Below, piece by piece: positions 2 through 19,593 of a stretch of 20,000 bases of DNA. Position numbers and translations under genes: made by a program. Origin of the DNA: Dimargaris cristalligena (Eukaryota); NCBI GenBank assembly GCA_003614675.1, contig ML002227.1, positions 50,828 to 70,827 of the forward strand, read 5' to 3'. Below the pieces are notes generated by a model, which searched no databases, had not been told where the DNA came from, and saw only the letters and a list, made by a program, of their open reading frames with translations. Numbering within the stretch: position 1 is the first letter of the stretch; each line of letters starts with the position of its first letter.

Positions 2-3000
2 CGGTTGGGAGAGCTCTCTAGAGGGGGTTCCACTACCGGAGGAGTGAACAACCGCCGAGAAGGGGGGCCGGTGCTCGGCCCACTGGGCAACGAGCATCGC
101 ATTGTACGACTCGTCGCGTGCCATTTCAGACCATGCGCCTAGGGAAATAGTACTTAGGCGATCGGGGGCGTATTGCGAAAAGGGCTGAGGCGGTACTAGG
201 CCAGAGGGGTGAGCCGCTGGACGACTTCCAACCACAGGGGATGAAGTGGGCATGCCAATCATTGTAGGGCGAGATTGGCGTAGCAACGGTTCGACCACTT
301 CGGGCATAGATGGCGGCATGTGGGGGAACGGGACTCTGTCCACTGGGGCATTTTCGGTGTATGCCTTGTGCGGCGGCAGATAATCGGCGGTTAGGTTCTT
401 GTCGGACGGAACGGCAAACGTTAGGCCAGGGGACTGTTCCTGGGACCACCGCAGGGGCTCTGTCAACTGGTTAGCGGTAGGCGGGTAATGCGAGTCGAGC
501 TCCCGAACTACCACTGAGTCCGGGGGAGATGCAAAGGCAACTGGAGTATCCCCGGCTATTGGGTGGGCCATTCGCTCGGAACTCAACTTAGCACCCCCCC
601 GGTCGTCTGAGCGGCGTGGGGTGGGCAATTGAGTGACGGTTGAGGAACCAACTAATGACACCCGGTCTGCGCGAACGGGCGGCGGCACTGGTCGGGTTGA
701 GGGTAAGTAGTCTGATTTGGCGGGTGGAGTGACAGATGTGGCATTCGATGCTAATACGCGGTGCCCTTGCAACTCAACTGCCCGGACAGGAGTAGATGTC
801 AAAATCTCGGGAGAAGATATTTGCTGCTGCGGAAGGCGTGGTCGAGAAGAATTCGCGGTTTTGGGAGCTCTACTCGAGGGGGCGGGGGAGGAGCCATATT
901 CCGGAGGTAAATGCGGCCAAGTGGATACGGGGTGGTCGGCAATCATAGCAGGTCCTACGGGACGACGGTCCAATTCTGGATTAGTGGGTGACAAGTCGCG
1001 CTGTGGATAAGTTGCCGTTTGAGCCAGAGTGGACTGCTCCCGCTCTGCTGCTTGAAGCGTGGTTGGCCCGACGGATAAATGATTGGTAGAAACTAGGCTA
1101 TGTTCGAGGGGAGAAGTAGGTCGAGGTAAGGCTATTGGGACCGGTTCAGTGGGCGGTGCCCACTGAGAGACCGTAGTGGCCACCATTACTGGCGAAGGTT
1201 GATGCTCAGTCGGACTGACTGAACGGGGTGGAGTGGGTTGCTCTAGAGCAGCTATGGCTGCTGATGCTGGAACAATCGGGCTCGCCACTTTAGGCCGGGA
1301 TTCGCTTTCGGTTGGGGACGCAGGTTGGACGAAGGCAGCCTGCCCCGTAACATTAGCTGGTGCCGTGGGAGAATCGCCGCATGCTTGAGTCACCGATGAT
1401 GAGCTATACCTGGCCTGACCAGTAGAGGCTGATAGGTGTAAGGGGGACCCATTTATTGAAGAGTGGGTTCGTGGGGGTGCAGCTGGCGACTGCCGCGCCG
1501 ACTGGGCTGGATCTGCCTTGAGTTGACCCAAGTTGGAATACACAAGTGGGGATTGGATAGGTGCCATGGTATAAGAACCCTGCCGAAGTGGGGCCGCCAC
1601 CGATACTATAGCGGCTTGGCCAATCTCTTCGTCGTCGGAGCTTAGTGGGTCAAGGTCCGAGGCGGGGGCGGATTCTGACGACAGGGACGATGAATGGGTA
1701 TCGGCTGGGAAGGGGACTGGAGTCCCCGACGGGCTTGGCACAAGTAAAGTGGGAGGCGGTTCAGGACTAGAGGATGGCCGTACGGGATCGGGACGGGGGG
1801 ACCCACCGGATCGGATAATAGCGGGGGTTGGCGAGGCGGGGACCATCAAATGACCCTCACGACCGAAAGGTTTCGCAAACGGACTAAGGTGGGTGGCGGG
1901 GCCGAATTCCCGTGAGTATCGGGCGCTAATGTGGCTCTGTATAGAACTCTGACTATTTCTTCTCGACGCGGACAGAATACTGGCAAAAGATTGGGCCGAC
2001 AAACGTAGCGCTTGGGCTTTTTGTACGCCCACGACGCGCTCTTCGCTGACCCGGTTCTCGATAAAAGACGTTGAATGGCCTGTGACTATTTCGAAGTCGA
2101 ATTCATCATCATCATCTACACCATCTTCCTCATCCTCTTGCTCGTCTTCCGAATGATGGTCCTTGGCCCTTGGAAGGTCTTCATCCGTATCATTGTAGTT
2201 CCCCTTATCCTGTTCAGGGTCTACGTCGTCATCGGCGATTGAAGGGTCGGATAAGTTCCTTGATACAGTCTTTGGCTCAAACTCGGCCCGATGATGGGTA
2301 TCTTGGGGCACATCATCCAAGGAGCGATCGGATAGAAAGTAGGGGTCTGCAGCCGAATCCATATAGTCCATGGAAGGGCGATACATACCCCCTGCCCGTT
2401 CGTAGGCATAGTTCTCCGCGTCAACATCCAATGAAAAAGAGCTGGCCGGAGGAAGTTCAGGTCGGGCGCACTGAAGGGGCCGCTCGGGATAGCCGAGTTC
2501 AGTCATGAGACCGAGCTGCTCCGGGGTGAAATCAGGCGATAGATCGAGAGAGGAAATGGAACAAGTGTGGATATACGAGTAGGTTGACCGTAGGGAGTGG
2601 AAGGAGGGTCGGGTGACAAGGGGGATGGTTGGGGCCGTCGTTAAATACTGGGTAGTGGATACCTCCTCTCCCATGCCATTCTGGGCCGTGGGAGTGAAGA
2701 TGGGGCTGGCCTCTTCCTGTGACGAACCCTCAATGATGGGACAGAGCCCGCTTTTCAAATCAGTCGAAAATATCCGTTTCCGGTTGGGCTTGAACTCTGA
2801 CTCGGGTTGCCAGGGGGCTTGCGAATCAATAGCGGCCGATTGATTCGAATGGGCCGATAAATTATTCAGTGGAGTCACCGAGGTAGCACAGGGCAGGTCG
2901 TCGGACTGCGAATAACTAGTCTCGGGCTGCAGTTGGGTATTACCATTTTGGGCGGGACCATCGATGGCCTTTAGTAAGGGGGCGGGGCTGTGTCTCAGTG

Positions 3001-6000
3001 AAGGTGAATAATGGCCAGTGGCAATCCAGTGTTCCACGGGTGAGGTGCCATAGGAACGGGATAAACTGGTGGGGGGAAGGATAGATTCAATTTGCTCATT
3101 AGGGGAGGTACCTCGAGGCAGCGGGAACGGGTGTGTTTTTTCGGACTCCGAAGCGAGCGAGAGCGAGGGGATTCCTTTTGGGTGCGGAGAAGGGCTGCGC
3201 TCGCGGCAGTCTTCATTCACGATAGAGGGGGGTGATGCAAGACTGGATTGGCTGGTCTCGGCATACGTCACCACGGGTACGGGCAGCGATTGATCATTGT
3301 ACTGGTGGTCTGGAATAAAATTATCAGGGGAACCGACTTGCTTAATCGGTGATGAAGTGGAGGTATGGTCACCTGGTGAAGCCTGGCCATCCTTCCCGGG
3401 CAAAAAAGAAGGCTGGGGTCCTTCAGATTTGATGGACTGGTTTAGAGAATCGGTGGACTCTCTGCGCATCTGAAACACGGACAATTGTGGGGGAGTCATG
3501 GGGCTAGACCGGTTGGGCACTCCGCGGACAGGAGCGGATAGCTCGGGCGAATCACGTGGAACCACTTGCTGGGTAAGCGGTAAAGGGGCCAAGTTATCGT
3601 TACGAGGCACATCCTTGGACTCAATCGGGGTAGGGACTGGTGCTACCGCATTCCTGAAGGACAGTTGCTTGGCTGATAGAGGTGTGCCAATTTGATGAGG
3701 CTTGGCAAATGTCTCTGATATGGCTTGAGGCCGTTGGTAATTAGCCCGGATAGCGGAAACAGTGGTAGGGACAGGGACGCTCTGAGATCGATCAGAAGTA
3801 CCGGCTGTACCAGATGAGGCGGGTGGGAAACGATTTAATAGTTTGCCCGGCTGGGGCTTCCGAGTTGACATTAAATCGACGACCTCCTGATGCGCCATAA
3901 GATCTGCCATGAGTTGATCAATCTTGGATCTCGAACTGGCCGGGGCCTGGGACTGGCCGGAACGTGAAGTCTCCGGTTTATCAGAGGGGGCCGCCGGCTG
4001 CGCTGAAGTGGACACTGGTGGCGAAGCTGAGCCTAAGGCTGAGGCTGGTGAGGTCAGCTTGGTTGACGACTGGCTTGCGATGAAAGCACTACCAGGTTCC
4101 GAGACCGAGGGAGAAGCATTCGTGATGGGCACAGTAGCAGATGGTGGTGACGCCATTGACTTTCTAATGTCAATAAATGGTGCCGGTTCAGTATGAGAGA
4201 AGGCCAAGGGAGTAGCATTCGCGATAGGGACAGCAGTAGGTGGTGGTGATGCCGTCGACTCGGTATTGTCAATAAATGGTACAGACCCAGTGCGAGGGGA
4301 GGCCAACGGAGTAGCACTCGAGATGGGGACAGCAGGAGGTGGTGGTGAGGCCGTCGACTTGCCATTGCCATTAAATGATACCGACTCGGTGCGAGGGGAG
4401 GTCAATAGAGTAGCATTCGTAGTGGGGGCAGTAGCAGGTGGTGGCGACGCCATTGGCTTGGTATTGTCAATAAATGGCACCGACTCAGTGCGAGGGGTGG
4501 CCAATTCCAGTGGCACATGCGGGGGCGAGCAGGCTACTGAGTAAATGGACACCTCAGGGGCAACCACAAGTGGGCCGGGTGACACTGAAGAAAATGCGGT
4601 GATCCTAGGCGGAGAAACCGACTGGTAGGGCAAACCCGGTGATACTGACGGTGAGGGAGCCTCAGCGGCCCTGGCCACGGGTTTGGGGGAAGCTGGATCT
4701 ACCGACGAATAAGTAGGAGGCACAAAGGAGTCGTCGCGTAGTTCGTTTGCAACAGAAGCGAAATCTGAGACCGTCGGTGGCGACCTCGAGAGGGAGGGCA
4801 GAGCCGGGGACAACCGGGGTGAAGATATCTGGACAACTTCAAGCACTGGCTCGCAAACGACAGGGGATGTAATGACCTCGACTGGAGATGGGACACCGCG
4901 GGCCGGCACGGTCAAAGTTGGCGACGGTGGAGTTGACTTTGTAAGTTCCGATGATGATCTCGATGTGGTAGACGTTAGGTCTGATTCGACCAGAGGTGAA
5001 GCAATACGAAGGGGTACAGTGGGCGACTGTGGCGGTGAAACCGACCCCACCGTGCTAATTAAGGACTTTGGTGTAGTGGACGAAGGAGCTTGATCGCCCG
5101 ATGTAATAGGGCTGACGGGCGGTGAAGATACCGACCGATTCAACTCAGTCGTGGGCTCGGATGTGAAGGTGTGTATAACCGGGCTCACTCGTGGGGGCAT
5201 GTCATGAGACGACTGAATCGGTAATAGCGGCGGTGACAATGCCCGGATGACATCGGTGAAAAGGCCAGGTGCAACGGACGGGGAAGGTGATCTTGTAGAC
5301 ACGGCCAATGGAGAGGTGGTAAGTACGGGTGCAAAATCCAGGGGAGAGGACAAGGTCGGAGAGTACAATTTGACAATATCCGCGATTTTTTTAGGCGACG
5401 GAGACCGGGACTGGTTCAGCCTACTTAGCGATCCCGACATTAGCGGTGCGGGGGATGTGGCAACTGGAGGGTGTTCTGTTGAGCCGCGGAGCAGGGGAGT
5501 AGTGGCAATGGGCATCGATCGGGGCTGATCCAGGGAAGCCGATTTAGGTGCAACTTCTGCCGACAAAAAGTTACGCTCCGTGGGGGATAGTGAGCGGGTG
5601 GATACAGGCGAGCCACCTAACTTCGCCATCTCGAGGCTGAGTTCGGACTCGAGGGTTTCTAATAAAAGTTGGGCGGACTTAGGGCTAGCTTGAGGGGAAG
5701 TGTTCGTCGCCTGGGTGGTCGGCAGTGGGCTAGTAATGGATTGGGAGCTATTGCGGCTGGACCGTCCCGGGGAAGGGACGTGGTTATGGTTGGGTACCAA
5801 CGCCTGAGTCCTCGTTGGGGTAACTGGGGTGGAAGTGCCCGAATCCCGAGACTTGAGAATGGCGGCCATATCGGTAATAGCCGATAAGTCAGTCGCTTTA
5901 CCATGGGTGGTGAAGGTCATAGCCGCCTCCACCTTGGGTGGGTTTTTACCCATTGCGGAAGAATAAGGATTGATAACAGTAGTGGGGGCTATGGAGGAGC

Positions 6001-9000
6001 GGGCCGACGCCGGTTTGACCCCTAAATCATGTTGATCAATATCGGGGGATCTACTAGGGGTTGGGGTGGCAGACGACGAGCGAGGACCAACAAAGATCTT
6101 AGCGCCTATTGGGCGGCGCCCACTCGGAGCTGACCGCGGGTAGGGTGCCCGAATTTGCCGGAAGTGGACGGGGATTTCAAGAGGAATATAGTCTTCTAGA
6201 ATAGGATCACTGGTCGAAATCGGGACCGGTGAGTGGAGGGTAGGGCCTTTTTTAGGTGGCAACGGCCCGGGCATAGTTGTAAGAATAGTAGGCTTATCAG
6301 CCCCACATTTACTAGCTAAGTTAGTCGAGTGGGAAGGAGGTGGGCCGGATAACCCCAACTCGCTAAGCAATCTAGCTCCGACGCTAGGACTTACTTCCCC
6401 GCTGCTGGCTACTTGCTCATTGAGCTGGCGCTCAATATCCAGCAGAATGGAGTCCACCTGGCGTTCATGAGCAATAAGACTAGGGGAGCGGGGAGGTTCA
6501 ACTTGAGGTTTCATGGGGGAGGCTACCGAAGGTGAAGTGGCCGCTCCTGAGGAACGGCTGGTTCTGGACGATTTATTCGACTGCGAGTCCGACTGGTGGT
6601 GGCCAGAGTGCGCACGAGACCGAACATGATCATTCAATAAGGCGTCAAGAGCATTCGCAATATCAGCGGGGTCTTCGGCAAGCGGAGGAGACTGGACAGG
6701 CTCCTTGGGGGCCAGTGATGAATGAGTGACGGGCTGATCTGACCCAACAACGACAATCGGCGTTTGACCCACGTGCGGCCGCACTGATGATACATCATCG
6801 GCGGGCAAGAAATCGGGTGATGAACGAGTGGATCGACTTGGGTCAGGAAGCCCTCCATAGGGTGAAGTATCGTCGTGCAGTAGAGTCGGCACGATCGGAG
6901 TCGAATAATCATAGTAATTGGCCTCAAAGTTATTGGGATCCTCCATTTGGGGCAGGGCCGAAAGAGAGTAGTTCATTGAGAACAACTGCTGATCCAGATC
7001 CGCGATTTCTTGGGCGATTTCCGCGCTACTCTTGATGACAGGCGAGGTGTATCCGGAGCCGTAAGAATACTCGGATGTAAAAGTAGAGGTGGATTTACGG
7101 GGGGTAGACTGGATCGGATTATCCCGGGGAGCCAAGCCCACAGCCGATGACGCACTCGCGCGCTGAGAGCGATTGGGGTGGGTATCAGGCGGGGGGAAAT
7201 TAAGGAAAGTGGGGTCCGAGAGGCGGTAGATGTGATTGTCCAGAACGTACGAAGTATCGGGCTGAGTCGGTGATTGTGCAGCAACCATAGATGTTATGTT
7301 ACCCTGATCCATCGAATCCATGGAGGGGGACGAGTGTTCGCGTGGGGTAGGGGGAAGGGGGGATAGTATCAGGGGGGTCGTTAACGCAAGACCCTGCGTT
7401 GGGGTGGCTACAGGGGATAATGAAATCGGTCTGTAGGTAGATATGCCAGGAGACTGAGGTTGAGAAGCGTGAGTGAAAGCCGGGGAGGGGGAAGATATAT
7501 CAATATCATCAGCAAAGAGGGGCGGCGAACCGACTGACCGCAGAAGCTGTTCAGAGGAGCGGGGGGAAAGGGGTGGGGGATGGCCCCAATTGCCCCCTGG
7601 ATCAGCCGTAGAAGCAGGCAGATGAAGATCAAAGGAATGGCCCGCCGACTGGGATTTTGCCACGGGTGTGGGGGACTCGGGGACCAGAGGAAGGGAGGTC
7701 ACTACAGATCCTGCGCCGGTAGGTAGAATCACCGAAAATCGATTAGCCAGAGGATCCGACGACCGCCGGGATGAAAAGGCATCGAAACTAATACCCTTCT
7801 CCTCCAATACGTCACTGAGCACCGAATTGCTGGGGAGGGAAGTCCGTGACGATGGTGGAGACCGGTGGCCGAATGATGACCCTACGCCAAAACTGATATC
7901 TGATGAATAGCTCGCGTTATAGGAATCGCGTGAATCGCGCTGGCGCCGGGACAGCGAGCGCAGCAATTCGTTGGATGCCCGCTTGGAGTTCTCGGCGGCG
8001 TGCTGGCGCTGAACGTGCTTCAGAACCATATGGGGATGGGTCGACGCAGTATCGGAATTCTCGGACATCATCGATTCCGAATGGGGAGAGGGTTCGGCCG
8101 GCGTGTGGGCGTGTCCCGATGATATACGATTGGGAGATATGCTGGACTGGACCACACTGTCCGTGGCCTGAAACGGGGAAATGGGCAGCTGGGCGGAGAC
8201 GGGGTGCGGCGGGGCCGACTTCTCCGGATCGGCCGGGCCCAGTCCGGCGGTATGGGGACGGGAAAAGGGGCCCGACTGGTATCCAGGTCGCACGGGTGGT
8301 GGTCCCCCCGTTTTCGGAAGACGGGGCGAGGCCAGATTGGCTATAGATTCGGCCGACGGTATGGTGGTTAGAGGCTCAGGTCGCGCGGATACCCTTGCCA
8401 GAACGGGGCCAGTTGTAAAGAAGGTCGGACGCTCTTGGAAACTGCAATCATCCGTGGACTTTCTGGACGCAATAGGTGAGGTCGAGGCCGATACGGATGG
8501 TTTCCGAGATGGCTGGGGAACCATAGGGGAGGCCGGGAGGGGAGCCAGAACAGCGGCGGGTAGTGGAGCACTCTGGGCCAATGGGGGGTCTGTAGGCGAC
8601 AGATCAGGGGTGTCAGCGACGGTGAAATTACGAACACTTAGTTTTTTGAGTTGGCCATCCAATGGGAGTCTGGGGGTGCCAGGCTGGGATTGGAACCATC
8701 CGGTGGGTACATCGATGGGGGATATAGAAAAAGGCAGCTGGGGCTCCTCAAGATTGAGGGGTGGGTATGTAGGCCCATTTCCTTCGGTATAGCTGCGGTG
8801 GTATACAGGCGATAATGGACCGGTTCGGGTTAGATTAACGGTGATTGCGCCGGTGGGGTCAATTTCCAAAGGCCGCGTAGGGGGGACTTTACCGTCCTTG
8901 TGTGGGACCAGGGGAGATTTAGGTGGCAATTGGCCGGATAGTGGGTCGTCCGTACCCGTCCCAACATTGGGGCCGACACTGTTAGACTGACGGGGTTTGG

Positions 9001-9994
9001 GCTGGCCGAGGATGGTCTTGGAGGGGCGAATTAATTTGGATTGGATAGAATTAAAAAGGCTTGTACCAGGGGCAATGGGTATGGGCCTAGGCTTGGTGGT
9101 GGTGGCGGCCGTGGTGGTGGGCGACGAAGTAGGGGAGGTCGCAACCACTGGTGGGGACAGTGGTTCTTCCTGGTTAGTAGTAGCGATGGGTGCCGCAACA
9201 GCAGGGGTAGCCAATGATGGATCAAAGTTAGAGGGACTATCGAGAGAGGCTGTGGCGGGGATGGAAACCCGGCCCTGTGGGGAGGACTCGCGACTCCTCG
9301 GGAGGCGGTTATTGGGGGCCGATGAGGCCAAGATTGGAGTGCAGCCAGCCGCTAGTGAGATGGGAGAGGGGATTGGACTGGGTTTGGGCAGGGGACCAGT
9401 AGTGGTATTTTCCAAAGGCTCACTGAGTCTCGCACCAGGAGGACCAGGAGGGAAAATACCGGGGACAGGACCCTCGGAAAGGGGGTGCGATGGAGGCGGC
9501 GGGGGCGGCGGGGGCGGGGGGGTATTCAAGGGGGGTGAGTGGAAGGGGGACTGCCGCGCGGGAGCGGATGTTGATGCAGCGAACGGCGGCGGAGCGTTAT
9601 CCACAATGTCCTCTAATTCCCGGTTCGACAGGGGCACGTCCAGGGAAAAAATGGAACCCTGGTCATCGTCACCTTCGTCGAGGTCGCTGCCGGAGTAATC
9701 GGCGGATATTTTAAGCAGGCGTTTCCGACGGGCCCGCTTGCCTAGGGCGCCCCTTATGCGTTTCATTTCGTCCATGACTTCATCGTACTTTTTAACCACC
9801 TCCTCGGGCACCAGGGGGTTGGCGTTCACGGGGATATCCTCCTCGATTTCAATTTCGATTTCCCGCGAGAGCGAGGGTTTGGATGGGAGCGGCCGGGAGG
9901 CGGACATGGTCGGCCTGGCGAATGGGGATTGGTTGGGAGCGGTCGAGCGGGAGGGCAGAACCGGAGACGACGGTTTGCCGGTCGGAATGACCAT
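2..9994 (-). CDS. Giant Pro/Ser/Thr-rich, largely disordered hypothetical protein (>=3331 aa, 3' end beyond the window's left edge); possible paxillin/LD-motif-type scaffold
   Basis: Manual translation of the minus frame (codon starts = 1 mod 3) is open from ATG 9994 (MVIPTGKPSSPVLPSRST...EEVVKKYDEVMDEMKRIRGALGKRARRKRLLKI...) to position 2 (...SGTPSRELSQP). An in-frame TAA lies just upstream (~10055-10057). The ORF track lists no ORF in this frame over 1-10000, as expected for one ORF with no stop in the window. There is an alternative ATG at 9907. Confidence 0.9.
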   Translation of the reverse strand, partial: MVIPTGKPSSPVLPSRSTAPNQSPFARPTMSASRPLPSKPSLSREIEIEIEEDIPVNANPLVPEEVVKKYDEVMDEMKRIRGALGKRARRKRLLKISADYSGSDLDEGDDDQGSIFSLDVPLSNRELEDIVDNAPPPFAASTSAPARQSPFHSPPLNTPPPPPPPPPPSHPLSEGPVPGIFPPGPPGARLSEPLENTTTGPLPKPSPIPSPISLAAGCTPILASSAPNNRLPRSRESSPQGRVSIPATASLDSPSNFDPSLATPAVAAPIATTNQEEPLSPPVVATSPTSSPTTTAATTTKPRPIPIAPGTSLFNSIQSKLIRPSKTILGQPKPRQSNSVGPNVGTGTDDPLSGQLPPKSPLVPHKDGKVPPTRPLEIDPTGAITVNLTRTGPLSPVYHRSYTEGNGPTYPPLNLEEPQLPFSISPIDVPTGWFQSQPGTPRLPLDGQLKKLSVRNFTVADTPDLSPTDPPLAQSAPLPAAVLAPLPASPMVPQPSRKPSVSASTSPIASRKSTDDCSFQERPTFFTTGPVLARVSARPEPLTTIPSAESIANLASPRLPKTGGPPPVRPGYQSGPFSRPHTAGLGPADPEKSAPPHPVSAQLPISPFQATDSVVQSSISPNRISSGHAHTPAEPSPHSESMMSENSDTASTHPHMVLKHVQRQHAAENSKRASNELLRSLSRRQRDSRDSYNASYSSDISFGVGSSFGHRSPPSSRTSLPSNSVLSDVLEEKGISFDAFSSRRSSDPLANRFSVILPTGAGSVVTSLPLVPESPTPVAKSQSAGHSFDLHLPASTADPGGNWGHPPPLSPRSSEQLLRSVGSPPLFADDIDISSPSPAFTHASQPQSPGISTYRPISLSPVATPTQGLALTTPLILSPLPPTPREHSSPSMDSMDQGNITSMVAAQSPTQPDTSYVLDNHIYRLSDPTFLNFPPPDTHPNRSQRASASSAVGLAPRDNPIQSTPRKSTSTFTSEYSYGSGYTSPVIKSSAEIAQEIADLDQQLFSMNYSLSALPQMEDPNNFEANYYDYSTPIVPTLLHDDTSPYGGLPDPSRSTRSSPDFLPADDVSSVRPHVGQTPIVVVGSDQPVTHSSLAPKEPVQSPPLAEDPADIANALDALLNDHVRSRAHSGHHQSDSQSNKSSRTSRSSGAATSPSVASPMKPQVEPPRSPSLIAHERQVDSILLDIERQLNEQVASSGEVSPSVGARLLSELGLSGPPPSHSTNLASKCGADKPTILTTMPGPLPPKKGPTLHSPVPISTSDPILEDYIPLEIPVHFRQIRAPYPRSAPSGRRPIGAKIFVGPRSSSATPTPSRSPDIDQHDLGVKPASARSSIAPTTVINPYSSAMGKNPPKVEAAMTFTTHGKATDLSAITDMAAILKSRDSGTSTPVTPTRTQALVPNHNHVPSPGRSSRNSSQSITSPLPTTQATNTSPQASPKSAQLLLETLESELSLEMAKLGGSPVSTRSLSPTERNFLSAEVAPKSASLDQPRSMPIATTPLLRGSTEHPPVATSPAPLMSGSLSRLNQSRSPSPKKIADIVKLYSPTLSSPLDFAPVLTTSPLAVSTRSPSPSVAPGLFTDVIRALSPPLLPIQSSHDMPPRVSPVIHTFTSEPTTELNRSVSSPPVSPITSGDQAPSSTTPKSLISTVGSVSPPQSPTVPLRIASPLVESDLTSTTSRSSSELTKSTPPSPTLTVPARGVPSPVEVITSPVVCEPVLEVVQISSPRLSPALPSLSRSPPTVSDFASVANELRDDSFVPPTYSSVDPASPKPVARAAEAPSPSVSPGLPYQSVSPPRITAFSSVSPGPLVVAPEVSIYSVACSPPHVPLELATPRTESVPFIDNTKPMASPPPATAPTTNATLLTSPRTESVSFNGNGKSTASPPPPAVPISSATPLASPRTGSVPFIDNTESTASPPPTAVPIANATPLAFSHTEPAPFIDIRKSMASPPSATVPITNASPSVSEPGSAFIASQSSTKLTSPASALGSASPPVSTSAQPAAPSDKPETSRSGQSQAPASSRSKIDQLMADLMAHQEVVDLMSTRKPQPGKLLNRFPPASSGTAGTSDRSQSVPVPTTVSAIRANYQRPQAISETFAKPHQIGTPLSAKQLSFRNAVAPVPTPIESKDVPRNDNLAPLPLTQQVVPRDSPELSAPVRGVPNRSSPMTPPQLSVFQMRRESTDSLNQSIKSEGPQPSFLPGKDGQASPGDHTSTSSPIKQVGSPDNFIPDHQYNDQSLPVPVVTYAETSQSSLASPPSIVNEDCRERSPSPHPKGIPSLSLASESEKTHPFPLPRGTSPNEQIESILPPTSLSRSYGTSPVEHWIATGHYSPSLRHSPAPLLKAIDGPAQNGNTQLQPETSYSQSDDLPCATSVTPLNNLSAHSNQSAAIDSQAPWQPESEFKPNRKRIFSTDLKSGLCPIIEGSSQEEASPIFTPTAQNGMGEEVSTTQYLTTAPTIPLVTRPSFHSLRSTYSYIHTCSISSLDLSPDFTPEQLGLMTELGYPERPLQCARPELPPASSFSLDVDAENYAYERAGGMYRPSMDYMDSAADPYFLSDRSLDDVPQDTHHRAEFEPKTVSRNLSDPSIADDDVDPEQDKGNYNDTDEDLPRAKDHHSEDEQEDEEDGVDDDDEFDFEIVTGHSTSFIENRVSEERVVGVQKAQALRLSAQSFASILSASRRNSQSSIQSHISARYSREFGPATHLSPFAKPFGREGHLMVPASPTPAIIRSGGSPRPDPVRPSSSPEPPPTLLVPSPSGTPVPFPADTHSSSLSSESAPASDLDPLSSDDEEIGQAAIVSVAAPLRQGSYTMAPIQSPLVYSNLGQLKADPAQSARQSPAAPPRTHSSINGSPLHLSASTGQARYSSSSVTQACGDSPTAPANVTGQAAFVQPASPTESESRPKVASPIVPASAAIAALEQPTPPRSVSPTEHQPSPVMVATTVSQWAPPTEPVPIALPRPTSPLEHSLVSTNHLSVGPTTLQAAEREQSTLAQTATYPQRDLSPTNPELDRRPVGPAMIADHPVSTWPHLPPEYGSSPAPSSRAPKTANSSRPRLPQQQISSPEILTSTPVRAVELQGHRVLASNATSVTPPAKSDYLPSTRPVPPPVRADRVSLVGSSTVTQLPTPRRSDDRGGAKLSSERMAHPIAGDTPVAFASPPDSVVVRELDSHYPPTANQLTEPLRWSQEQSPGLTFAVPSDKNLTADYLPPHKAYTENAPVDRVPFPHMPPSMPEVVEPLLRQSRPTMIGMPTSSPVVGSRPAAHPSGLVPPQPFSQYAPDRLSTISLGAWSEMARDESYNAMLVAQWAEHRPPFSAVVHSSGSGTPSRELSQP
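4109..4504 (-). repeat. Coding tandem repeat, 4 x 99 bp (33 aa), consensus approx. LASPRTESVPFIDNTKSTASPPPxAVPITNATP
   Basis: The anchor CAATAAATGG/CATTAAATGA recurs at 4171, 4270, 4369 and 4468, an exact 99-bp period. The translated units align without gaps. Confidence 0.92.
9491..9520 (-). repeat. Poly-proline tract (10 consecutive Pro) in the giant ORF
   Basis: Ten consecutive NGG triplets on the + strand, in frame with the giant ORF. Confidence 0.85.
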
Positions 9995-10558
9995 CCTGGG
10001 AAGAGTTGGCACGGGCAGAGGCCGGCGGAAGAGTGTATGCGAAGCGGACGGTGGTTAAGTAAGACGACGGGCCAGCCGGCTTGGCTGGGTAAAACGATTT
10101 TTGGGAATGTTTTAGCGGACCGCGGAAATAGGCCAGGCGGAGGAGGAAGAAGAGCGGTGGCGGCAGATGGGTCAGTAAGCGTATCGGAGACGGGCGTGGC
10201 GGATATTAGAGAAAAACAGAGCAACGCAGATATAAAGCAGTTATAGAAAAGAGCGGAGCAGAGGGATGAGAGAACAATAGGGGTTATGTAAGCAGTCTGG
10301 GGTTGGAAAACAAGAATCCTAAAGAGAGTCCAAGCAGATATAGAAAAGGAGGAGAAGGGATCTGAATGGCACTGCTGAAAGGAAAGGAAAGGGAGTGACG
10401 AGCAAGGTGGCCGTGGTAAAAGAGGGGAAAAGAAACTCGTTCTGGTCAGGATACCTTAGCAGCCGCCAGGAGAGGTTTTACTACGATCACGCATACACAG
10501 AGAGCCGGCCCGGGTTGCTGTCAATGCCAAATAAATGCAGTCGGTTCTGGGAAAGCCC

Positions 10559-10588
10559 CTCTCTCTCTCTCTTTCTCTCTCTTTCTCT
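10559..10588. repeat. Imperfect (CT)n/(AG)n microsatellite upstream of the giant ORF
   Basis: ctctctctctctctttctctctctttctct read directly from the sequence. Confidence 0.85.
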
Positions 10589-12232
10589 ACGGCAGAGACG
10601 CTCAGAACGAGAAAAAATGCCAGCTGGCCGATTAGGAGTCCGCCGGAAAACAACAGAGAGCGGCAAAGAAGGTGGGCATAGTTGGAATTAAACGAATGAG
10701 TGAACAACATGTCGCACCAACCCCGCGCCCGCGGAGCCGTCTGCACCACCTCGGGGCCGGGTCGTCATTGGAACGGGCATTTTGTGTCAGAAGGTCTTCG
10801 TATCTCTCCGGCCAGGAGGCATCGAGTCTTCTTCCAACGAATACCAACGGTGATCCCATTTATTATGGTCGATGATTCGCCCTGACGAGGGGTCTTTAGG
10901 CTGCGCACTTGACAGAGAGAAAAAGGTTCCGCTATAGTCTAAGAGACGTATAATCCCCACAACGGGCTGGTTTGGCCAATCACCCGATCGACACAGTTCC
11001 TATTTTATTATATTATAGTATAATGCTGAGACGACTAACAGCCCGTTTGGAGGGCACTCAGCCCTACTGACCCGTTTTTTTCATCGACGCTGGTGTAGTG
11101 AGAATGGATGGTCCGTCCAGGGGCGCCTACTGTCACTCCCCTGTCCCGCGCTGATCGAGTATAGTAGCGGCCGTCACCATAGTACCGATGCTGTCGACCA
11201 GCTGGCGGGACTAAAAAAAAAGAGGAAAATCCGGACCAGCTGGGCCCAGACTTTCTGATCCCCGCCGCCGATTCAGCCCGCGACGGCCTCTTTCCCCCAT
11301 TGTTCCTGGCCCCCTATAGCCATTCTGAACTGCCCTGGACTGACCAATCCACGCCCCGCCCTCTATTTATATTGGGACTTGCATTATTATGGAGGCAATC
11401 TCACCACGGCCCTGGGAAATGGATTTCCGCTATCATCTCCTTCCGCCCTCCTCTGCTGGGTTTTTATCGCTTTTTATTATGCCTGTTTGGTCATTCATAA
11501 CCAACTTTGCCTAAATTAATAATGGTTTGGGAGTGGATAGTGGGGGGCTGGCCCTGACTCTCAGCGCCCTAGAACGGGCAGTGCCCATGTATACGCATGC
11601 GGACTAACTGAATCTGGCATGAACTTGACCATTTCCCTGCCATTGCCAAATGTACCCGTCTAAATAGTGCAGTGTCTGAGGCTCGGATAGGATTGTATTG
11701 TATTGGGTATTTATAGTACTATTAAAGCGGGTCTCGACTACTTTATTTGCAGTTCACACTCCATAACTGTTTCTTCACGAATCGCGTATCATTATCCTAC
11801 GCATCAACTTTGAAGGCTAATACAAGAGACCCACTAAGCACTCTTGTCGGAATTCCAGCTCAGCTTCGACCCGTCTCGTATTTGCCGAAATATGCCGGAT
11901 TGTTAGTGTTTAGCAGGAAGCGGAACTTCGACATTGTCTTATCTGCAAATAAATGTAACCCAACCGCTGCTGCAGCAAAAATAATAATATACAGGGCAAA
12001 AAAAAGCAACAAGGAGACAAGAGTGACCGACCACTCCCACCACAAGAACCTATTTCATTGAATATATTCGCATTTTCCCAGGTATATCCTACAGCCACCA
12101 ATAACAGAGTATATGTCTCTGCCACAGTGGCTTCAGCCAATCTCATTCCCACCATTGGACATCTCTCTCGTAATCTATTTTAGAAAAGAATCGCTAGCCG
12201 TCGACATCCACCTGCGCCCATTCTCTTCCATA

Positions 12233-13038
12233 ATGTCCGACATTGCCGCCATGAACGACGAGTTGGCCCTACTTCAGAAGAAGGTATGCTGTTTGAAGAA
12301 GAGAATCCCCCCCCCAATCAATTACAGCCGTAGCCCCCATGCGGCGCATTACCTGGGTTTCAGAGTAAAAAGGCAGTTGTAAGCCCTAGTTGTAGCCCAA
12401 AAGCCACCCAAGTCTTGTCAGCCTCACCCATTTTGCCTTGTGTAGCACACCCTCTTGCTGAATGGCCGAACTAGGTCGGCATGTTCAATGTCAAACTCAC
12501 TCAACTTCCCCATTGCCGCTGTATCTCTCTACCCCTACCCACTGTAGCAACAAGAATCAATGGTCCTCCAAAGCGAGTTGGAAAACCTCAAAGATACTAG
12601 AGTAAGTTTACTATACTGAATACATCCCCACCCACTCTCACTGAGATGTGATGTCAAGTTGACTAAGTGTTTGTGATTCTGGGCGAATTGTTTGGGGTCT
12701 AGTGTATTAACTATTCCGGTTGATGCTTCATTATATATAGAAACTGTACACCAGTCGGGCCCCAGGTGGCATCTTCTTTGTCGATAAGCGCCAGACTATT
12801 CAGACTCGTAACCAGGGTAAGTTGTCCAAATGACTGGGGGGCCGCAAGTTGTCCCCGAGACCAACGAGACCATGTCCTCGGTTTACAAAAATGACAGAAT
12901 TTAGGTATTACGCCTCGCATTATAACCAAACACCCCTCTATCTACGCAACTGCTACTATACCCCACCTAGCCTCGCAAAAGGAATTGACCAAAAAGATCC
13001 AGGATTTGGAAAAAAAAACTGGGCCAAGGGAACAATAA
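12233..13038 (+). CDS. ASDURF: Small beta-prefoldin-like protein, ASDURF-like (82 aa); exons 12233-12283, 12548-12601, 12741-12816, 12971-13038
   Basis: Three canonical introns (GTATGC..CTGTAG 12284-12547; GTAAGT..TATTAAC..TATAG 12602-12740; GTAAGT..CCTAG 12817-12970) join 51+54+76+68=249 nt into one frame: MSDIAAMNDELALLQKK/QQESMVLQSELENLKDTR/KLYTSRAPGGIFFVDKRQTIQTRNQ/ASQKELTKKIQDLEKKTGPREQ*. The layout is coil, hairpin, coil. The core ELENLKDTRKLY..IFF matches my recollection of human ASDURF ([12 protein letters not shown]..IFF) without gaps. Confidence 0.8.
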
Positions 13039-13463
13039 TACCCCTACCACGAAATAATACAAAGGGTCTTCCAAACTACACAGGAGATACCAACTGATTG
13101 CGGGAAGGGGATAAAAATAAATCAACACTAATATCCATTAAACATATTCCTGGCATCCGTCAAATAATAAGTGAGGTCTAGAGAAGATTGACTGTACATA
13201 ATATAGGTTCGCCATTCAATACAGACTCGTACTGTAATTGCGAAAACCAAAAACATGAATAACCAAACACCTTCTCCCACTATAAAAAACATCAATAACA
13301 ATGGTGAACGACTATATCGAGGGCCTTGAGAGATTCCAAGTGATTGCATAAAATTTATTGAGAATATAACTGACGTACACTCCCAGTGCGATTTAACAGA
13401 TAAGTGACTATTCCTTTTATAATGGTGGGGGAAAGCCTCAGGCAACAGGTGAAAAAAAATATA

Positions 13464-15076
13464 TTAGGCATTCATGTAGGTCGACACATCAATGTTCTCG
13501 GGAAGCTCGGTAATGGACACTTCGAAGCGGTCCTGGATGGCCTTCAGGTTAGTGCGATCAGCATCCGTTGACACAAAAGTAATAGCCAGACCCTTGGTAC
13601 CGAAACGTCCAGCACGTCCCACACGATGAAGGTAGGAGTCGGGGCTGTCGGTAATATCGTAGTTAATGACAATATTGACTCGCTCGACATCAATACCACG
13701 TCCAAAAACGTCGGTGGCCACCATAATACGATGGGTGAAGTCCTTGAACTCGGTGTACCGCTCAATACGCTCCTCCTGGGTCATACCGCTGTGGATGGTG
13801 GTGACGGGGAAGTTGCACGAGTGCAGGATGTCGTGGAGCATCTGGGCGCGCTTGACGGAGCTAACGAACACGCACACCTGATTGAACTCTAGGTTGTCAA
13901 GCAGATCACTCAAACGCCGGTTCTTCTTGTCGGCGGGCAGGTCAACGTAGTATTGCTGCAGACCGTGAAGGGTCAGCTTGGTCTCGTCATCAACGAAGAT
14001 TTCGAGGGGGTTGTTCATGAACTTCTTGGCCACGGCACGGGTCTCCTGGCTCAGGGTAGCGGTGAACATCATCACCTGCTTCGAGCGGGGAGTGGCTTTG
14101 AAGATTTCCTGAACGGTGCGGCGCATATCTGTTCATGATTCCGAAACACAAGTAGAATATCCAAAAAAAAAAATGAGTTAGAATACATGACGGGTAATTA
14201 GAGGGCAGGCTGACTAAGGGCCAGTGGTGCCAATGATCAGATGTTTTTGTATAGATTGACCTCAGGACACGACAGGGTTTCAATCCATCGTGCCATCTCG
14301 GAGAGCTGGGTTTAGAAAATAGCAATGTTTATCATCATTTAAGGCCTGCCGAAGCGGAGATTTAGAGAGCACGCTACAGGAAAGCGACTCCATAGCTCGA
14401 CCGAATAAGCTGAGCACTTACCAATTTCGTCCAAAAGACGATCGCACTCGTCAAGGACAAAGTGCTTGACGTGGTCGCAGTTGAGGGACTTGTCGCGGAT
14501 CAGACCAGCGACACGACCGGGGGTACCGACCAGAATGTGGGGGCAGGTGGCGGGGTTCTTGAGCAGCTCCTGGTCAGTCTTGACGGGGGTACCGCCGTAG
14601 ACGACCGAAGTGCGCACGGCCGGCAAGTACTTGCCGAAGCGGGTGTACTCGTTCTTGATCTGGTAGGCCAGTTCGCGGGTGTGGCACAGAACAATCACGG
14701 ACACTTCACCGTCCACGGGCTCGATTTGGTTGAGCGTGGCCAAGACAAACACAGCAGTTTTGCCCATACCCGACTTGGCCTGGGACAGCACGTCGACACC
14801 CATCACGGCACGGGGGATACACTGCTGCTGAACTTCACTGGGATGTTCGAAACCGCAGTCCACGATGGCACGGGCGAGCTCGGGCTTGAGTAGGAACTCA
14901 CGGAAACCGGTCGAGTGCATACTGGCGTAACTGCCCTTCTTGTCGGACGCGTCCGCACCAGCGGCCTCACCACCCTTGGCGCCGTCATCTTGACCGGCGT
15001 CAGTGGTGGTGGTTTCGGTGGGGAGGGCTTCTTCCTCCTCGTCGTAGTCGATGAGATCCTCGTTGTGATCGGCCAT
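13464..15076 (-). CDS. SUB2: ATP-dependent DECD-box RNA helicase SUB2/UAP56 (DDX39), 439 aa; exons 15076-14422 and 14128-13464
   Basis: N-terminal [11 protein letters not shown] and [23 protein letters not shown] motif GFEHPSEVQ; motif I AKSGMGKT; motif Ia HTRELA; motif II DECD; motif [10 protein letters not shown]. Splicing gives [15 protein letters not shown], the usual UAP56 junction. Confidence 0.97.
14129..14421 (-). other. SUB2 intron (293 nt, phase 1), snoRNA host
   Basis: Donor G|GTAAGT at 14421, branch point TCTAAC near 14180, T-rich tract, acceptor ACAG| at 14129. Its removal restores the reading frame. Confidence 0.93.
14258..14344 (-). ncRNA. snR69: Intronic box C/D snoRNA, snR69-like (predicted guide for the 25S rRNA Cm2948 equivalent)
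   Basis: C box ATGATGA at 14338-14332. Guide TCTAAACCCAGCTC at 14316-14303 is perfectly complementary to the conserved LSU rRNA sequence GAGCUGGGUUUAGA. D' box CCGA at 14301-14298; D box CTGA at 14265-14262. The D'+5 rule selects the C of GAGCUGGG (yeast C2948, the snR69 target). The RNA ends are approximate. Confidence 0.85.
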
Positions 15077-18057
15077 GATGAAGATTGAAGTGGATGAGAA
15101 AGGGGAGATGTTCCGGTAGAAGGGAAAGTGTGGATCAACGGGTAATGTCGAGGGTCAACGATACCCACAAAAGAATAAGAGCAAAAAAGATACAACAACA
15201 CAAAGACCGGAGAGTCAAAAGATGAGAGAATGAAACCAAACGCGTCGGAGCAAAGAAAGCCAGGAAACAGGAGTGGGGCCACACGTGTGGTAAGTGTATA
15301 TGGGAGAGAGGGGGAGGGGGAATAGTGTACAGGCAGGAAGAAAGGGTGTCTCTCTTTCGCAGCAGGGTCAAGGAAGACTGAGAGTAATAATAGTAGTAGT
15401 AAGGTGGGACTTCTGGAAGGGGGAGAATCGATCCAATTATATGCAAGTCGATGGGAGAAAATGTCCCAAGGCGGCCGGAATAAATAACGTATTTTACACA
15501 GCAATGAATTAAGCCAAAAACGGGAACGTCGAAACGAAGGGCTGACAGAATGCCGAAATATAATAGGTATTGTACAAGGGAGGGAAGTGGAGGGTGTTGG
15601 GGCATACTAACGAGTCTCTCAGCCCTCACGGAAACCCTCGTTTATAAAGAAACAGAGGGGGAGGCGGCTGATAGTTCCAACCACAAAGGCGTTCCTCACG
15701 AAAGTGACCCATTTTCCTAGGCAAATCCCCGTGGTTTTTTCCAGCTATGATCAAGTTTTTTTTTTCATGAGTAGTAACGGTATGGCCTGCCCCAGAGGCG
15801 GACTATCTTACAGTATTGGTCGGCTGTAGCACAAATGGGTTTTTTTAAAAGCATGCTAAAAATTAGAGATAAAATAATTTTGGTCTTATAAAAGGGATAC
15901 GAATAGACCAAAAGCACAGTACCAGCCAATGAAAATGGTATAATCAGCCCAGTGTTGAAATTTTTTCGTGCGGTCCTTGGGCATTCCTTAGACCAGACAC
16001 TGCGTTTGGGGAGAGTGGAAGCTATTGCCTGATCCAATTGGTTAACAAGAGCCACTATGTGCCTTGCCCAATGAGATATTCCAGCCCCCCTATGGTTGAC
16101 TGTAGGCAACCCGTACATTCATTAGTAGAGTGTGTGGTATGGCAAATTTTTATTGCATAAGGTACCTCTGTGGGTCACCTGATCGGATCAAAGGCACCAT
16201 TCGTCTCAATGAAAATGAATCCCAGGAGTTCGATGGAATGGGCCTGTTGACCAGCCGCCCCCCTTTACGAATGGAATATGGGCAGGGTTATATATCCAGC
16301 GGTATAACAACGACGCATCCGCTCAATGAAGTTGATTTTGTAGGATACGGTTATTACACTCGCCCGGTCTACCGTGAACAGTTAATCCGAAATCCCGTAT
16401 TATTGTATTGAGGAGTTTCATGTACATATTGCCACTAATTAGTGGGGAAAGGACACGCCCAAGTAGTTGGATAGATTGTGATTAATCTCAACTGCAGCAT
16501 GATAATATTGATTTGGAGGTTGTCAGCCACATATGTTCAACTGACCAACCCCAGGATAATAACAGGCCACTGTTGCATTAGTAGTTCACCACGTATATAC
16601 CAATATTTAAATCCGCTGGGTATAGAGTGCTGCCAGACCCGGAGATGTTGCCAATCCGGACTAATTAGTAGGCAAAGGGTGATATGCTTATATTGTAGTA
16701 GAACTTAATGCCACACTAAAGTACAGCAGATATAGCCTTACATCAGCACCAGCTGGAACAGCTACAACCCTGTTGGAAACTAACATCTTGGAAGGTAACC
16801 TTGTACTCAGTGGGGACGGTTCTTGTCTGGACTTCAGACAGGGGCAACTGGGGATCACTCATAGATCATACTAGGACCCGGCAAACCAGGCACAATACAT
16901 GGGTTTAGGACCAGTAGCAACGTAGATAAGATAGCACCGGGAATCAGGGATCCTGATAAGAAATTTAATCGTGCAAACACTGCTGGTCTTTAACGAGAGA
17001 GTGCCCATAGGGTGTTGATAGGAAACTTGGGAATATAGAAAACATGCATATAGCAACCTAGGAGTGCCCAAAGTCCATATGGGAGTAGTTCAATAAGGTT
17101 GTATAATGAAAAATCCATTTGATGAGGCAAATACTGCTGGTTGAAATTAAACATCCCACCAATTTTCCCACACACATAGCAGTTAAAACCTTATACCACT
17201 GAGCCGAACTTCACCCATATTGTCAATAGTTATGGTCAGATGTTTCTATGGTACCGGAATACTCAACCTTGTGGCAGAGGATAGGGAACATAAATGAAAA
17301 AAAAATGAAGGTCGCTGATGATGGTGGCTATTGGGCACGGGGACTAGGTATGCGCCCTAACCTTCCACAATTGGGATGAAATCATACTACGATAATATAT
17401 AATCTTGGAAGTCATGTCCAGACCTATTTCCGGTGGTGGTCTCCACCTTTTCCCGAAAGTTGACAATATACTATGTGCTTTATATTCTCAAGGTTTAAGT
17501 AGGGCCAGCTTCAGCACTATAATCATAGATTACATAATGTAATTTGGCCTATTGCCTGAACCAAGTGGTCTCCAGCTCCCGATAATACCCAAACCCACAG
17601 ATGGTTGAATTTTAAAGCGGCATAATAGTAGAAAACCAAAAGAGCACGCATATCGAATTTATGAGTGATAGGTTAACCAATCGATGGATGTTTCGTTGAT
17701 ATAATGAATAGTAAACTATGGATATATTTAGCCCGCGGTTGGCCTTACATAGCCAATAAGCCAAGAATGGCTGAGCCGAATTGAGGCGAAAGTAACTGTA
17801 ATCAAACTAACTGAAATAGGAATATAGAATACATTGGATTTTTCCAGAATACATGTATATGGGGGGAGAGGGTGACTCGGGAATTGGGGGGTTATCATAT
17901 AATAATATGAGGTACCATTCATGGTAGTGAAAGGCAGGGGAGGGAGAACCTTTCCAGTAGTAACGACCAATCCAATTCCGCTAAAAATGCCAAGCACATA
18001 CAAAGGACTTTAATATCGACCTGTGAATGGAAAGGACAGCTGGTTCACTTAAATATT

Positions 18058-19442
18058 TTAAGGTGCCACCTGATCCGAAATGGTGTATTTACTCCGGTAC
18101 TCGGGTACAAGCATATCCTTGGCCACCGCCATGCTGTATCCCTCCATAGACAAGTTAAACCGGCTCTTCTCAAACAAGATATCTCTGCACTGGCGTTCGG
18201 GAAAAGGCTTATCCAATGAATGTAAGGCGTTGTTTGCCTGACCTAAATTTTGATCAGTTGAGACGCGCTCATTGATGTGGTCCAACTCCAGCTAATATTC
18301 TAGTAGAAGATTCTGGGCCTTGATCAATCCGTATTCACCCAGACACTGGATATATTCGAAACGCTGCTCCAGAATATATTCTTCAACCGTTTGGTTATTT
18401 ATACTTTCCATGGCCTCATTCGATGATGGATCATATCCGTCCTTCCAACCCGCCTTTTGCTCAAGAAGCTCGATAATATCGTAGATGTTCTCTGCGACAG
18501 CCCCGTCCTTCTCATTACCGGGTAGTTTTTCGAACATTTGAGCGGCTAGGACAAGTGCAAAACGGGCGTACTCAGTATGCTTGACGTCCATACCCGCCAG
18601 GCCTGATTCAGAAGTCGCATCCAGCGTAATCCTAAAGAATTCCTTGACCTTGTTAAAGGGAGACTGGGTTCCAGGTTCGGGAAGGGCAGTGACTGCCTTC
18701 TGGAATAGATGCCAGGCAACGTGGGCAAGGGTCCCATGGAAAATGTCATATATACTATATTGAAATATGCCGACAAGGCGGGCCCTATAGCATTGGGGTT
18801 TCAGGACAAGGTGCTCAAATAAATTCCTGTCGCAAAGAGGATTAATCGAGTTCTTTTCGAATTGATCTAAGGACATCCCGGTCGTTCGGCTGTCGTCACT
18901 TCTAATATTATAGCCCAAGGGCCCTGTAGAGCCCCCATTAGAATTGTTGCTGTGGGCTGGGGACCCCGGGGGGGGGCATCGTCAAGATAGCCATCATTGT
19001 CAATCAAGTCTGAGGGTGCTATGTGGAGGCCGCCGAGTTCCACTTTATCAACTAAGGAATATGAAGGGAGGAGATCATTTAAATTATCACCAGTGAACGA
19101 GGAATCCAGGGCTCTCAAAAACGCCAGGTCTATCGTTTCTTCCGAATCACTCTCAAATGGGATGGACAGGAGCCCAGTAAATTCGGGGATAGTTTGCATA
19201 TGGGCCAGCTGGAGAATGGAAAATGCTGTATAAAGGTACTTATCATCCAGATGATCTGCCAGTGTAGAACCACGACCCGGGGATCCAGAAGGGTTCGGCG
19301 TGACCTTGTCGGGTTGTAGGGCACCGGGCCGTGGGGAGGAGGAAGCCGGAAATAACCGTTCAAGTAGAGAGCGGGGACGGGATGGAGAGGGTGGAGGAGA
19401 CACCTCCGGGCTCCCAGTGAACGGATGCTTCGAGCGGAACAT
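18058..19442 (-). pseudogene. Disrupted hypothetical protein gene (~460 codons if repaired): frameshift at a C9 run plus an in-frame TAG
   Basis: ORF 19442-18867 links to the frame of ORF 18918-18292 if one C is added to the 9-nt run at 18968-18976 (...YLDDAPPPGSPAHSNNSNGGSTGPLGYNIRSDD...). ORF 18285-18058 is in that same frame after a single TAG at 18294-18292 (..LLEY*LELDHINER..). No family recognised. Confidence 0.6.
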
Positions 19443-19593
19443 AGTGTTTTAATTAAATGAAATAGCTTTAATAAAATTGCTAAATCGTTTCGTTTTTTAA
19501 AAAGGAATGAATATATTTCGAACTTGGGGACCGTGGCTACTTTATATTCGCTCTTCGACGGCCTTGTTTAAAGTGAGAAATTAATGGATAGGT

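Follow-up and report, generated by a model that had tools for sequence, protein, structure and literature searches.

A four-exon gene for a small prefoldin-like protein, probably of the ASDURF type, in the fungus Dimargaris cristalligena

Introduction

Do four very short exons that can be joined between positions 12233 and 13038 of a stretch of Dimargaris cristalligena DNA form a real gene, and, if they do, to which kind of prefoldin does the small product belong? The question concerns one locus in a 20-kb window, which is the whole stretch of DNA that was analysed and in which positions are counted from the first letter. A preliminary description of the locus had proposed a hidden gene for an ancient orthologue of ASDURF. 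In the parts of the literature consulted, ASDURF is one of the six subunits of the prefoldin-like (PFDL) hexamer of animals and plants, together with URI1, UXT, PDRG1, PFD2 and PFD6, and this hexamer cooperates with R2TP when RNA polymerases and other large assemblies are put together; the classic prefoldin hexamer supplies actin and tubulin to CCT. For both humans and Arabidopsis the same sources count ASDURF among the PFDL subunits, the plant protein being encoded by a separate gene, At1g49245. The statement that ASDURF had been described mainly from animals, with which the locus was first presented, was overstated, since the At1g49245 product co-purifies in AP-MS experiments with UXT, URI, PDRG1, PFD2 and PFD6.

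Exon structure and splice sites

The proposed gene lies on the forward strand. Exon 1 (12233..12283, 51 nt) encodes residues 1-17 and the start of an N-terminal helix, and these residues are identical to residues 1-17 of a public protein, P0001, to which we return below. Exon 2 (12548..12601, 54 nt) adds residues 18-35 and the remainder of the N-terminal helix, placed by an AF2 model at residues 3-32. Residues 36-60 and the first base of codon 61 are contributed by exon 3 (12741..12816, 76 nt), which holds the central linker with a presumed beta-hairpin (motif GGIFF) and then the start of the C-terminal helix. Exon 4 (12971..13038, 68 nt) supplies residues 61-82 and with them the C-terminal helix (residues 51-76 in the AF2 model). 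The frame begins with an ATG at 12233 that has an A at position -3 and ends with TAA at 13036-13038, giving a product of 82 aa.

The three forward-strand introns separating these exons measure 264 nt (intron 1, 12284..12547, phase 0, GTATGC...TAG), 139 nt (intron 2, 12602..12740, phase 0, GTAAGT...TAG) and 154 nt (intron 3, 12817..12970, phase 1, GTAAGT...TAG), and the first of them has a non-coding codon score in all three frames. Read directly from the letters, the donors are AAG/GTATGC, AGA/GTAAGT and AGG/GTAAGT, and the acceptor is TAG in each case. Long introns fit the locus, because an intron in the neighbouring helicase gene, on the opposite strand, spans about 293 nt (14421 to 14129) and likewise begins with a GTAAGT donor, at 14421. 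On re-splicing, all coordinates, exon sizes and junctions given in the preliminary description, including the GT-AG borders and the 82-aa frame, proved exact. It had also been right that a six-frame scan cannot reveal this frame, as the exons are spread over different frames and none of them appears as a long ORF in a six-frame listing.

The choice of start codon is not fixed at 12233, because a second ATG lies upstream in the same frame (12113..12115, forward strand, T at position -3) with no stop codon before 12233. Initiation there would add 40 proline-rich residues without coiled-coil character, and neither public model of the gene uses it. On the 3' side, an AATAAA on the forward strand (13116..13121), 78 nt past the stop codon, may serve as a polyadenylation signal, judging from its sequence.

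A public protein identical to the spliced product

The stop-to-stop frame that contains exon 3 (12741-12830, 30 aa) was compared by phmmer with 1.84 billion representative sequences and gave two matches. The better one was P0001, a protein of 82 aa, matched at its residues 36-62 with an E-value of 2.3e-8. P0001 agrees with the spliced model letter for letter, and those of its residues that lie outside the exon 3 query equal the translations of exons 1, 2 and 4. It is represented in NCBI by two accessions, both named "hypothetical protein" and both from Dimargaris cristalligena, it is also present in EukProt, and its UniRef name is "Prefoldin". The protein database already labels it automatically with the Pfam families PF01920 and PF21975. 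The gene is thus already annotated with exactly the structure proposed, since P0001 is identical to the spliced product, and the idea that it was hidden or unannotated has to be given up.

The second match to the exon 3 query, P0002 (E 1.1e-6), was taken as spurious, with 33% identity distributed over five stretches. P0002 is a protein of 251 aa built of tandem repeats of approximately 25 residues, and it illustrates how repeats can make the match of a very short query look more significant than it is.

Other searches added no relatives. A word-index homologue search with P0001 returned P0001 itself as the single candidate, and a scan of metagenome contigs with the same protein gave 497 pattern matches, none of which was confirmed by tblastn. 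The 106-aa forward frame that includes exon 1 (12062-12379) was also submitted to the word-index search, and no candidate sharing three 5-residue words was found. This frame missed P0001 although it contains the first 17 residues of that protein, and although P0001 is in the searched database and is found there by its own sequence.

That two public models agree does not independently prove that the gene is expressed. In the single-cell genome paper of D. cristalligena an automatic annotation pipeline is named, and the words "transcriptome" and "RNA-seq" do not occur in its main text; a second paper, as far as the text consulted goes, describes ab initio annotation of Kickxellomycotina assemblies with Funannotate. 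Neither paper is taken here as the source of the P0001 accessions. Purely automatic prediction would suit a non-functional alternative, namely that a chance spliced ORF was predicted by two ab initio pipelines and that its coiled-coil composition produces weak matches to prefoldins. The same may be said of the P0001 cluster, which comprises one member sequence, on two contigs. The results of the following two sections bear on this alternative from both sides.

Coding character of the spliced frame

The clean spliced ORF had been offered as an argument for the gene. As a chance control, the region 12100-13200 was shuffled 60 times with preservation of dinucleotides, and all ORFs that begin with ATG and contain no more than three introns, each 45-400 nt long, were enumerated. 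A length of 249 nt or more was attained in all 60 shuffles with bare GT..AG borders, in 15 of 60 with GTRNGY..YAG and in 12 of 60 with GTAAGT or GTATGY..YAG. Under the same rules the real region 12100-13200 can itself be spliced into other, longer ORFs, which measure 501-678 nt. Because equally long frames are frequent in shuffled DNA, a clean spliced ORF is no evidence by itself, and the argument made from it carries no weight alone; to this extent the shuffles, at every stringency of splice site applied, count for the chance alternative.

The codon usage of the frame argues the other way. A codon table was derived from 438 codons of the adjoining helicase gene. The spliced CDS scored 0.035 bits per codon in frame, as against -1.61 and -1.34 out of frame, and introns 1-3 scored between -0.73 and -1.50 in all frames. 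For comparison, 1855 overlapping windows of 246 nt were taken from the non-coding-looking upstream region 10100-12200, and all of them stayed below the score of the CDS, the highest at -0.387. Coding-like usage is therefore confined to the proposed frame and exceeds that of every flanking window. With a small training set and overlapping windows, the result is supportive, not decisive, of a coding sequence. A further point against chance is the placing of the donors: of only six GTAAGT sites that the forward strand of the whole window contains, two lie exactly where the frame needs donors. The case for the gene is carried by codon usage together with homology, and not by the cleanness of the ORF.

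Family assignment

The top Pfam family for the product was ASNSD1-SEP (PF21975), the ASDURF family, with an E-value of 7.7e-6 and 26.4 bits against a curated cut-off of 27, a score 0.6 bit below the cut-off and significant by E-value. The match forms one stretch, in which residues 14-75 of the protein (62 of 82) are aligned with positions 27-88 of the 96 in the profile over equal spans, and each of the three splice junctions falls within it. This agrees with the gapless alignment to human ASDURF, beginning at residue 14, that the preliminary description had proposed. Exons 3 and 4 searched alone matched no prefoldin family in Pfam. A correct splice model predicts a match across the junctions, as is seen here, where the whole product matches and exons 3 and 4 alone do not.

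Prefoldin_2 (PF01920) came second, with an E-value of 1.2e-5 and a score of 25.6 bits (cut-off 27.6), the protein matching at residues 4-76 and the profile at positions 14-84 of 106. ASNSD1-SEP is thus ahead by only 0.8 bit, with both scores below their cut-offs. All remaining Pfam families had E-values of at least 0.011, and noise of the coiled-coil type appeared in the same scan at E-values of 0.01-0.2. No prefoldin model was matched in NCBIfam, and a sequence search of the PDB gave three weak matches (thioredoxin-like and glutaredoxin proteins and Lmo0741; E 0.06-0.44), none of them a prefoldin.

That both Pfam scores fall short of the curated cut-offs is what matches caused by coiled-coil composition might look like, and counts for the chance alternative. 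On the other hand, a chance ORF would have to match a family of its own size in a single stretch, with equal spans, over three junctions and at an E-value of 7.7e-6, in addition to showing coding-like codon usage and well-placed donors. We regard a non-functional ORF as decidedly improbable.

A comparison of protein features in the ESM Atlas agrees with Pfam. The three best matches were all clusters carrying PF21975, with scores of 0.90, 0.88 and 0.88 and 211, 204 and 201 shared features, and the nearest clusters bear the name ASNSD1 upstream ORF protein. In the best cluster, where 211 of 256 features are shared, 79% of the members carry PF21975 and the representative has 83 aa; according to the tool's own figure, between 4 and 10 of every 100 shuffled proteins obtain a first match with this score of 0.90. 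The second cluster (0.88) is dominated by plants, with PF01920 in 16% and PF21975 in 14% of its members and a representative of 85 aa, and the third (0.88) is an ASNSD1-SEP cluster with PF21975 in 26% and a representative of 76 aa. When PF21975 clusters are excluded, the best matches are Prefoldin_2 clusters at 0.85-0.84, dominated by oomycetes or consisting of archaeal beta subunits. The Atlas result may be taken as a lead that points in the same direction as the Pfam match.

The narrow margin between the two Pfam families raises a second alternative, in which the gene is real and its product is not an ASDURF orthologue but a canonical beta-prefoldin, for example one at the PFD1/Gim6 position, that evolves fast and has been shortened. 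The Prefoldin_2 match (E 1.2e-5, 25.6 bits) is practically level with ASNSD1-SEP, and the UniRef name "Prefoldin" is consistent with this possibility. Dimargaris has been called fast-evolving, in the text consulted with regard to rRNA, and ASDURF has been modelled at the PFDN1 position, as described in the portion of the source at hand, so that a likeness of the two proteins is to be expected. Nevertheless, the narrower ASDURF profile is still the top-scoring one, and among the Atlas matches listed the PF21975 clusters (0.90-0.88) rank above every cluster with Prefoldin_2 only (0.85). Clusters of eukaryotic PFD1, PFD2, PFD4 or PFD6 were absent from the Atlas matches listed. The length of 82 aa, too, agrees with the ASDURF-type clusters (76-85 aa) and not with the clusters of prefoldin beta subunits (104-108 aa). 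A canonical beta-prefoldin therefore appears unlikely, if less so than a chance ORF.

A third alternative is a protein related to PDRG1, the other beta subunit specific to the PFDL module. Such a protein would be of the beta prefoldin-like type and could give a weak Prefoldin_2 match, and PDRG1, in the reviews as far as consulted, is another subunit that budding yeast lacks and that plants and animals have. No result points to PDRG1, however: the specific profile matched is ASNSD1-SEP, and the nearest Atlas clusters are those of the ASNSD1 upstream ORF protein. We consider this alternative very improbable.

Taken together, these observations suggest that the locus is probably a real, stand-alone, four-exon gene of D. 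cristalligena (Zoopagomycota) encoding a beta-type prefoldin-like protein, the most likely identity of which is a fungal counterpart of ASDURF. "ASDURF-like" is the best reading of the sequence, with orthology likely, unproven. Of the orthology first proposed, what has held is a small prefoldin-like product whose top Pfam family is PF21975 and whose nearest Atlas clusters are ASDURF; what has not is a clear separation from Prefoldin_2, given the slender lead in bits and two scores beneath the curated thresholds.

Predicted structure

An AF2 model computed without an alignment shows a helix at residues 3-32, a linker of 18 residues and a second helix at 51-76, with a mean pLDDT of 76 and a pTM of 0.36. 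Residues 33-50 form a low-confidence loop (block pLDDT 57-60), and the model contains no beta-hairpin. The product, with its 82 aa and two long helices (3-32 and 51-76), falls in the microprotein size class of about 75-100 aa. The local sequence pattern between the helices presumably fits the hairpin of a beta-prefoldin.

Comparison of the AF2 model with the PDB by Foldseek returned 49 rows, none of them at an E-value of 0.001 or lower and none a prefoldin. In a wide VIA-align search the best match was a doublet-microtubule protein (Z 8.3), and here, as with Foldseek, the matches were generic helical hairpins; an archaeal filamentous prefoldin appeared at rank 48 (Z 6.6), level with unrelated helical hairpins. 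For a predicted two-helix model we take this ranking to be uninformative.

If the ASDURF-like reading is correct, the helices at about 3-32 and 51-76 would pair to form an antiparallel coiled-coil "tentacle", and the central segment (approximately residues 36-50), with its GGIFF motif, would fold into a beta-hairpin and take its place in the double beta-barrel of a prefoldin-like hexamer. The partners in that hexamer would be URI1, UXT, PDRG1, PFD2 and PFD6; expression of the gene, membership in such a complex and the corresponding function are presumed.

Genomic neighbourhood

In the window the ASDURF-like gene stands alone between a divergent giant ORF and a convergent helicase gene. The giant open frame (2-10054, reverse strand) is uninterrupted for at least 3351 codons and runs off the start of the window. 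Its translation, in which Ser, Pro and Thr are very abundant, shows internal repeats and matched no Pfam family at an E-value of 0.01 or lower, and the region has a strong positive GC skew (0.13-0.31) on the forward strand. The frame probably belongs to a gene for a giant, largely disordered protein, with transcription leading away from the ASDURF-like gene. The 2.2 kb that separate the two contain a simple repeat of the CT/GA type (approximately 10560-10620), which reads as SLSLSL or ERERER in several frames.

On the other side, the DEAD-box helicase gene (13464-15079, reverse strand; Pfam DEAD, E 9e-32; Helicase_C, E 2e-30) converges with the ASDURF-like gene and looks like one of the Sub2/UAP56 type. 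Further along, the reverse strand has two open frames that overlap (18292-19448; 229 and 193 codons), look coding and matched no Pfam family at an E-value of 10 or lower; both probably represent exons of a single unnamed gene.

Significance for the prefoldin-like module

Judged from its sequence, the gene is a probable fungal addition to a known family. In the literature searched, as far as its text was consulted, no link between ASDURF and fungi was found, and the term "ASNSD1-SEP" was absent from it. Within that literature a fungal ASDURF-type gene seems undescribed in print, and, if the assignment holds, this would be the first fungal record of the ASDURF subunit of the prefoldin-like/PAQosome chaperone. 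The protein would also provide a small, fast-evolving test case for recognition of the sixth subunit.

It would follow, if this is true, that the full module is older than the divergence of fungi, animals and plants, and the state found in yeast would be a loss. An ancient origin, as first suggested for the locus, is not new, the Arabidopsis orthologue having implied antiquity already. The gain is in this respect incremental, all the more as the protein is deposited and its automatic Pfam label is public. A more far-reaching scenario, which we put forward tentatively and hold to be possible though somewhat doubtful, is that Dimargaris, and by implication the fungal ancestor, keeps a complete URI1/UXT/PDRG1/ASDURF/PFD2/PFD6 module, that the Bud27-only state would be a secondary loss, and that ASDURF may have been a stand-alone gene first and have been captured later as the ASNSD1 uORF in animals.

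Comparison with known systems

The family of human ASDURF (PF21975), a beta-type member of the prefoldin-like module of the PAQosome, is the top Pfam match of the Dimargaris protein, and size class and two-helix layout are alike. Compared with the profile of this family, the Dimargaris protein lacks about 13 residues at the N-terminus, and its score lies just under the cut-off given above. The animal ASDURF is a uORF of the ASNSD1 mRNA, whereas the Dimargaris gene is stand-alone and has four exons; what lies downstream of it is the convergent DEAD-box helicase gene (13464-15079, reverse strand). The uORF arrangement does not define the family, because the plant gene At1g49245 is a separate gene as well. 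This Arabidopsis gene, as presented in the text consulted, likewise stands alone and encodes a small beta-type prefoldin-like protein.

The canonical beta-prefoldins (PFD1/Gim6, PFD2/Gim4, PFD4/Gim3 and PFD6/Gim1; PF01920) belong to the same superfamily by profile match and have in common with the Dimargaris protein a layout of helix, presumed hairpin region and helix. They differ from it in that the Dimargaris protein is shorter, does not reach the PF01920 cut-off and scores lower with Atlas clusters of Prefoldin_2 only (0.85). In the sources as far as consulted, they are part of the classic prefoldin that serves actin and tubulin, and not of the PFDL module.

Budding yeast, according to the portions of reviews consulted, has only Bud27 (URI) and is without UXT, PDRG1 and ASDURF. 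It is a fungus as well, and in contrast to it the early-diverging Dimargaris appears, from the profile and feature matches of its product, to keep an ASDURF-type gene.
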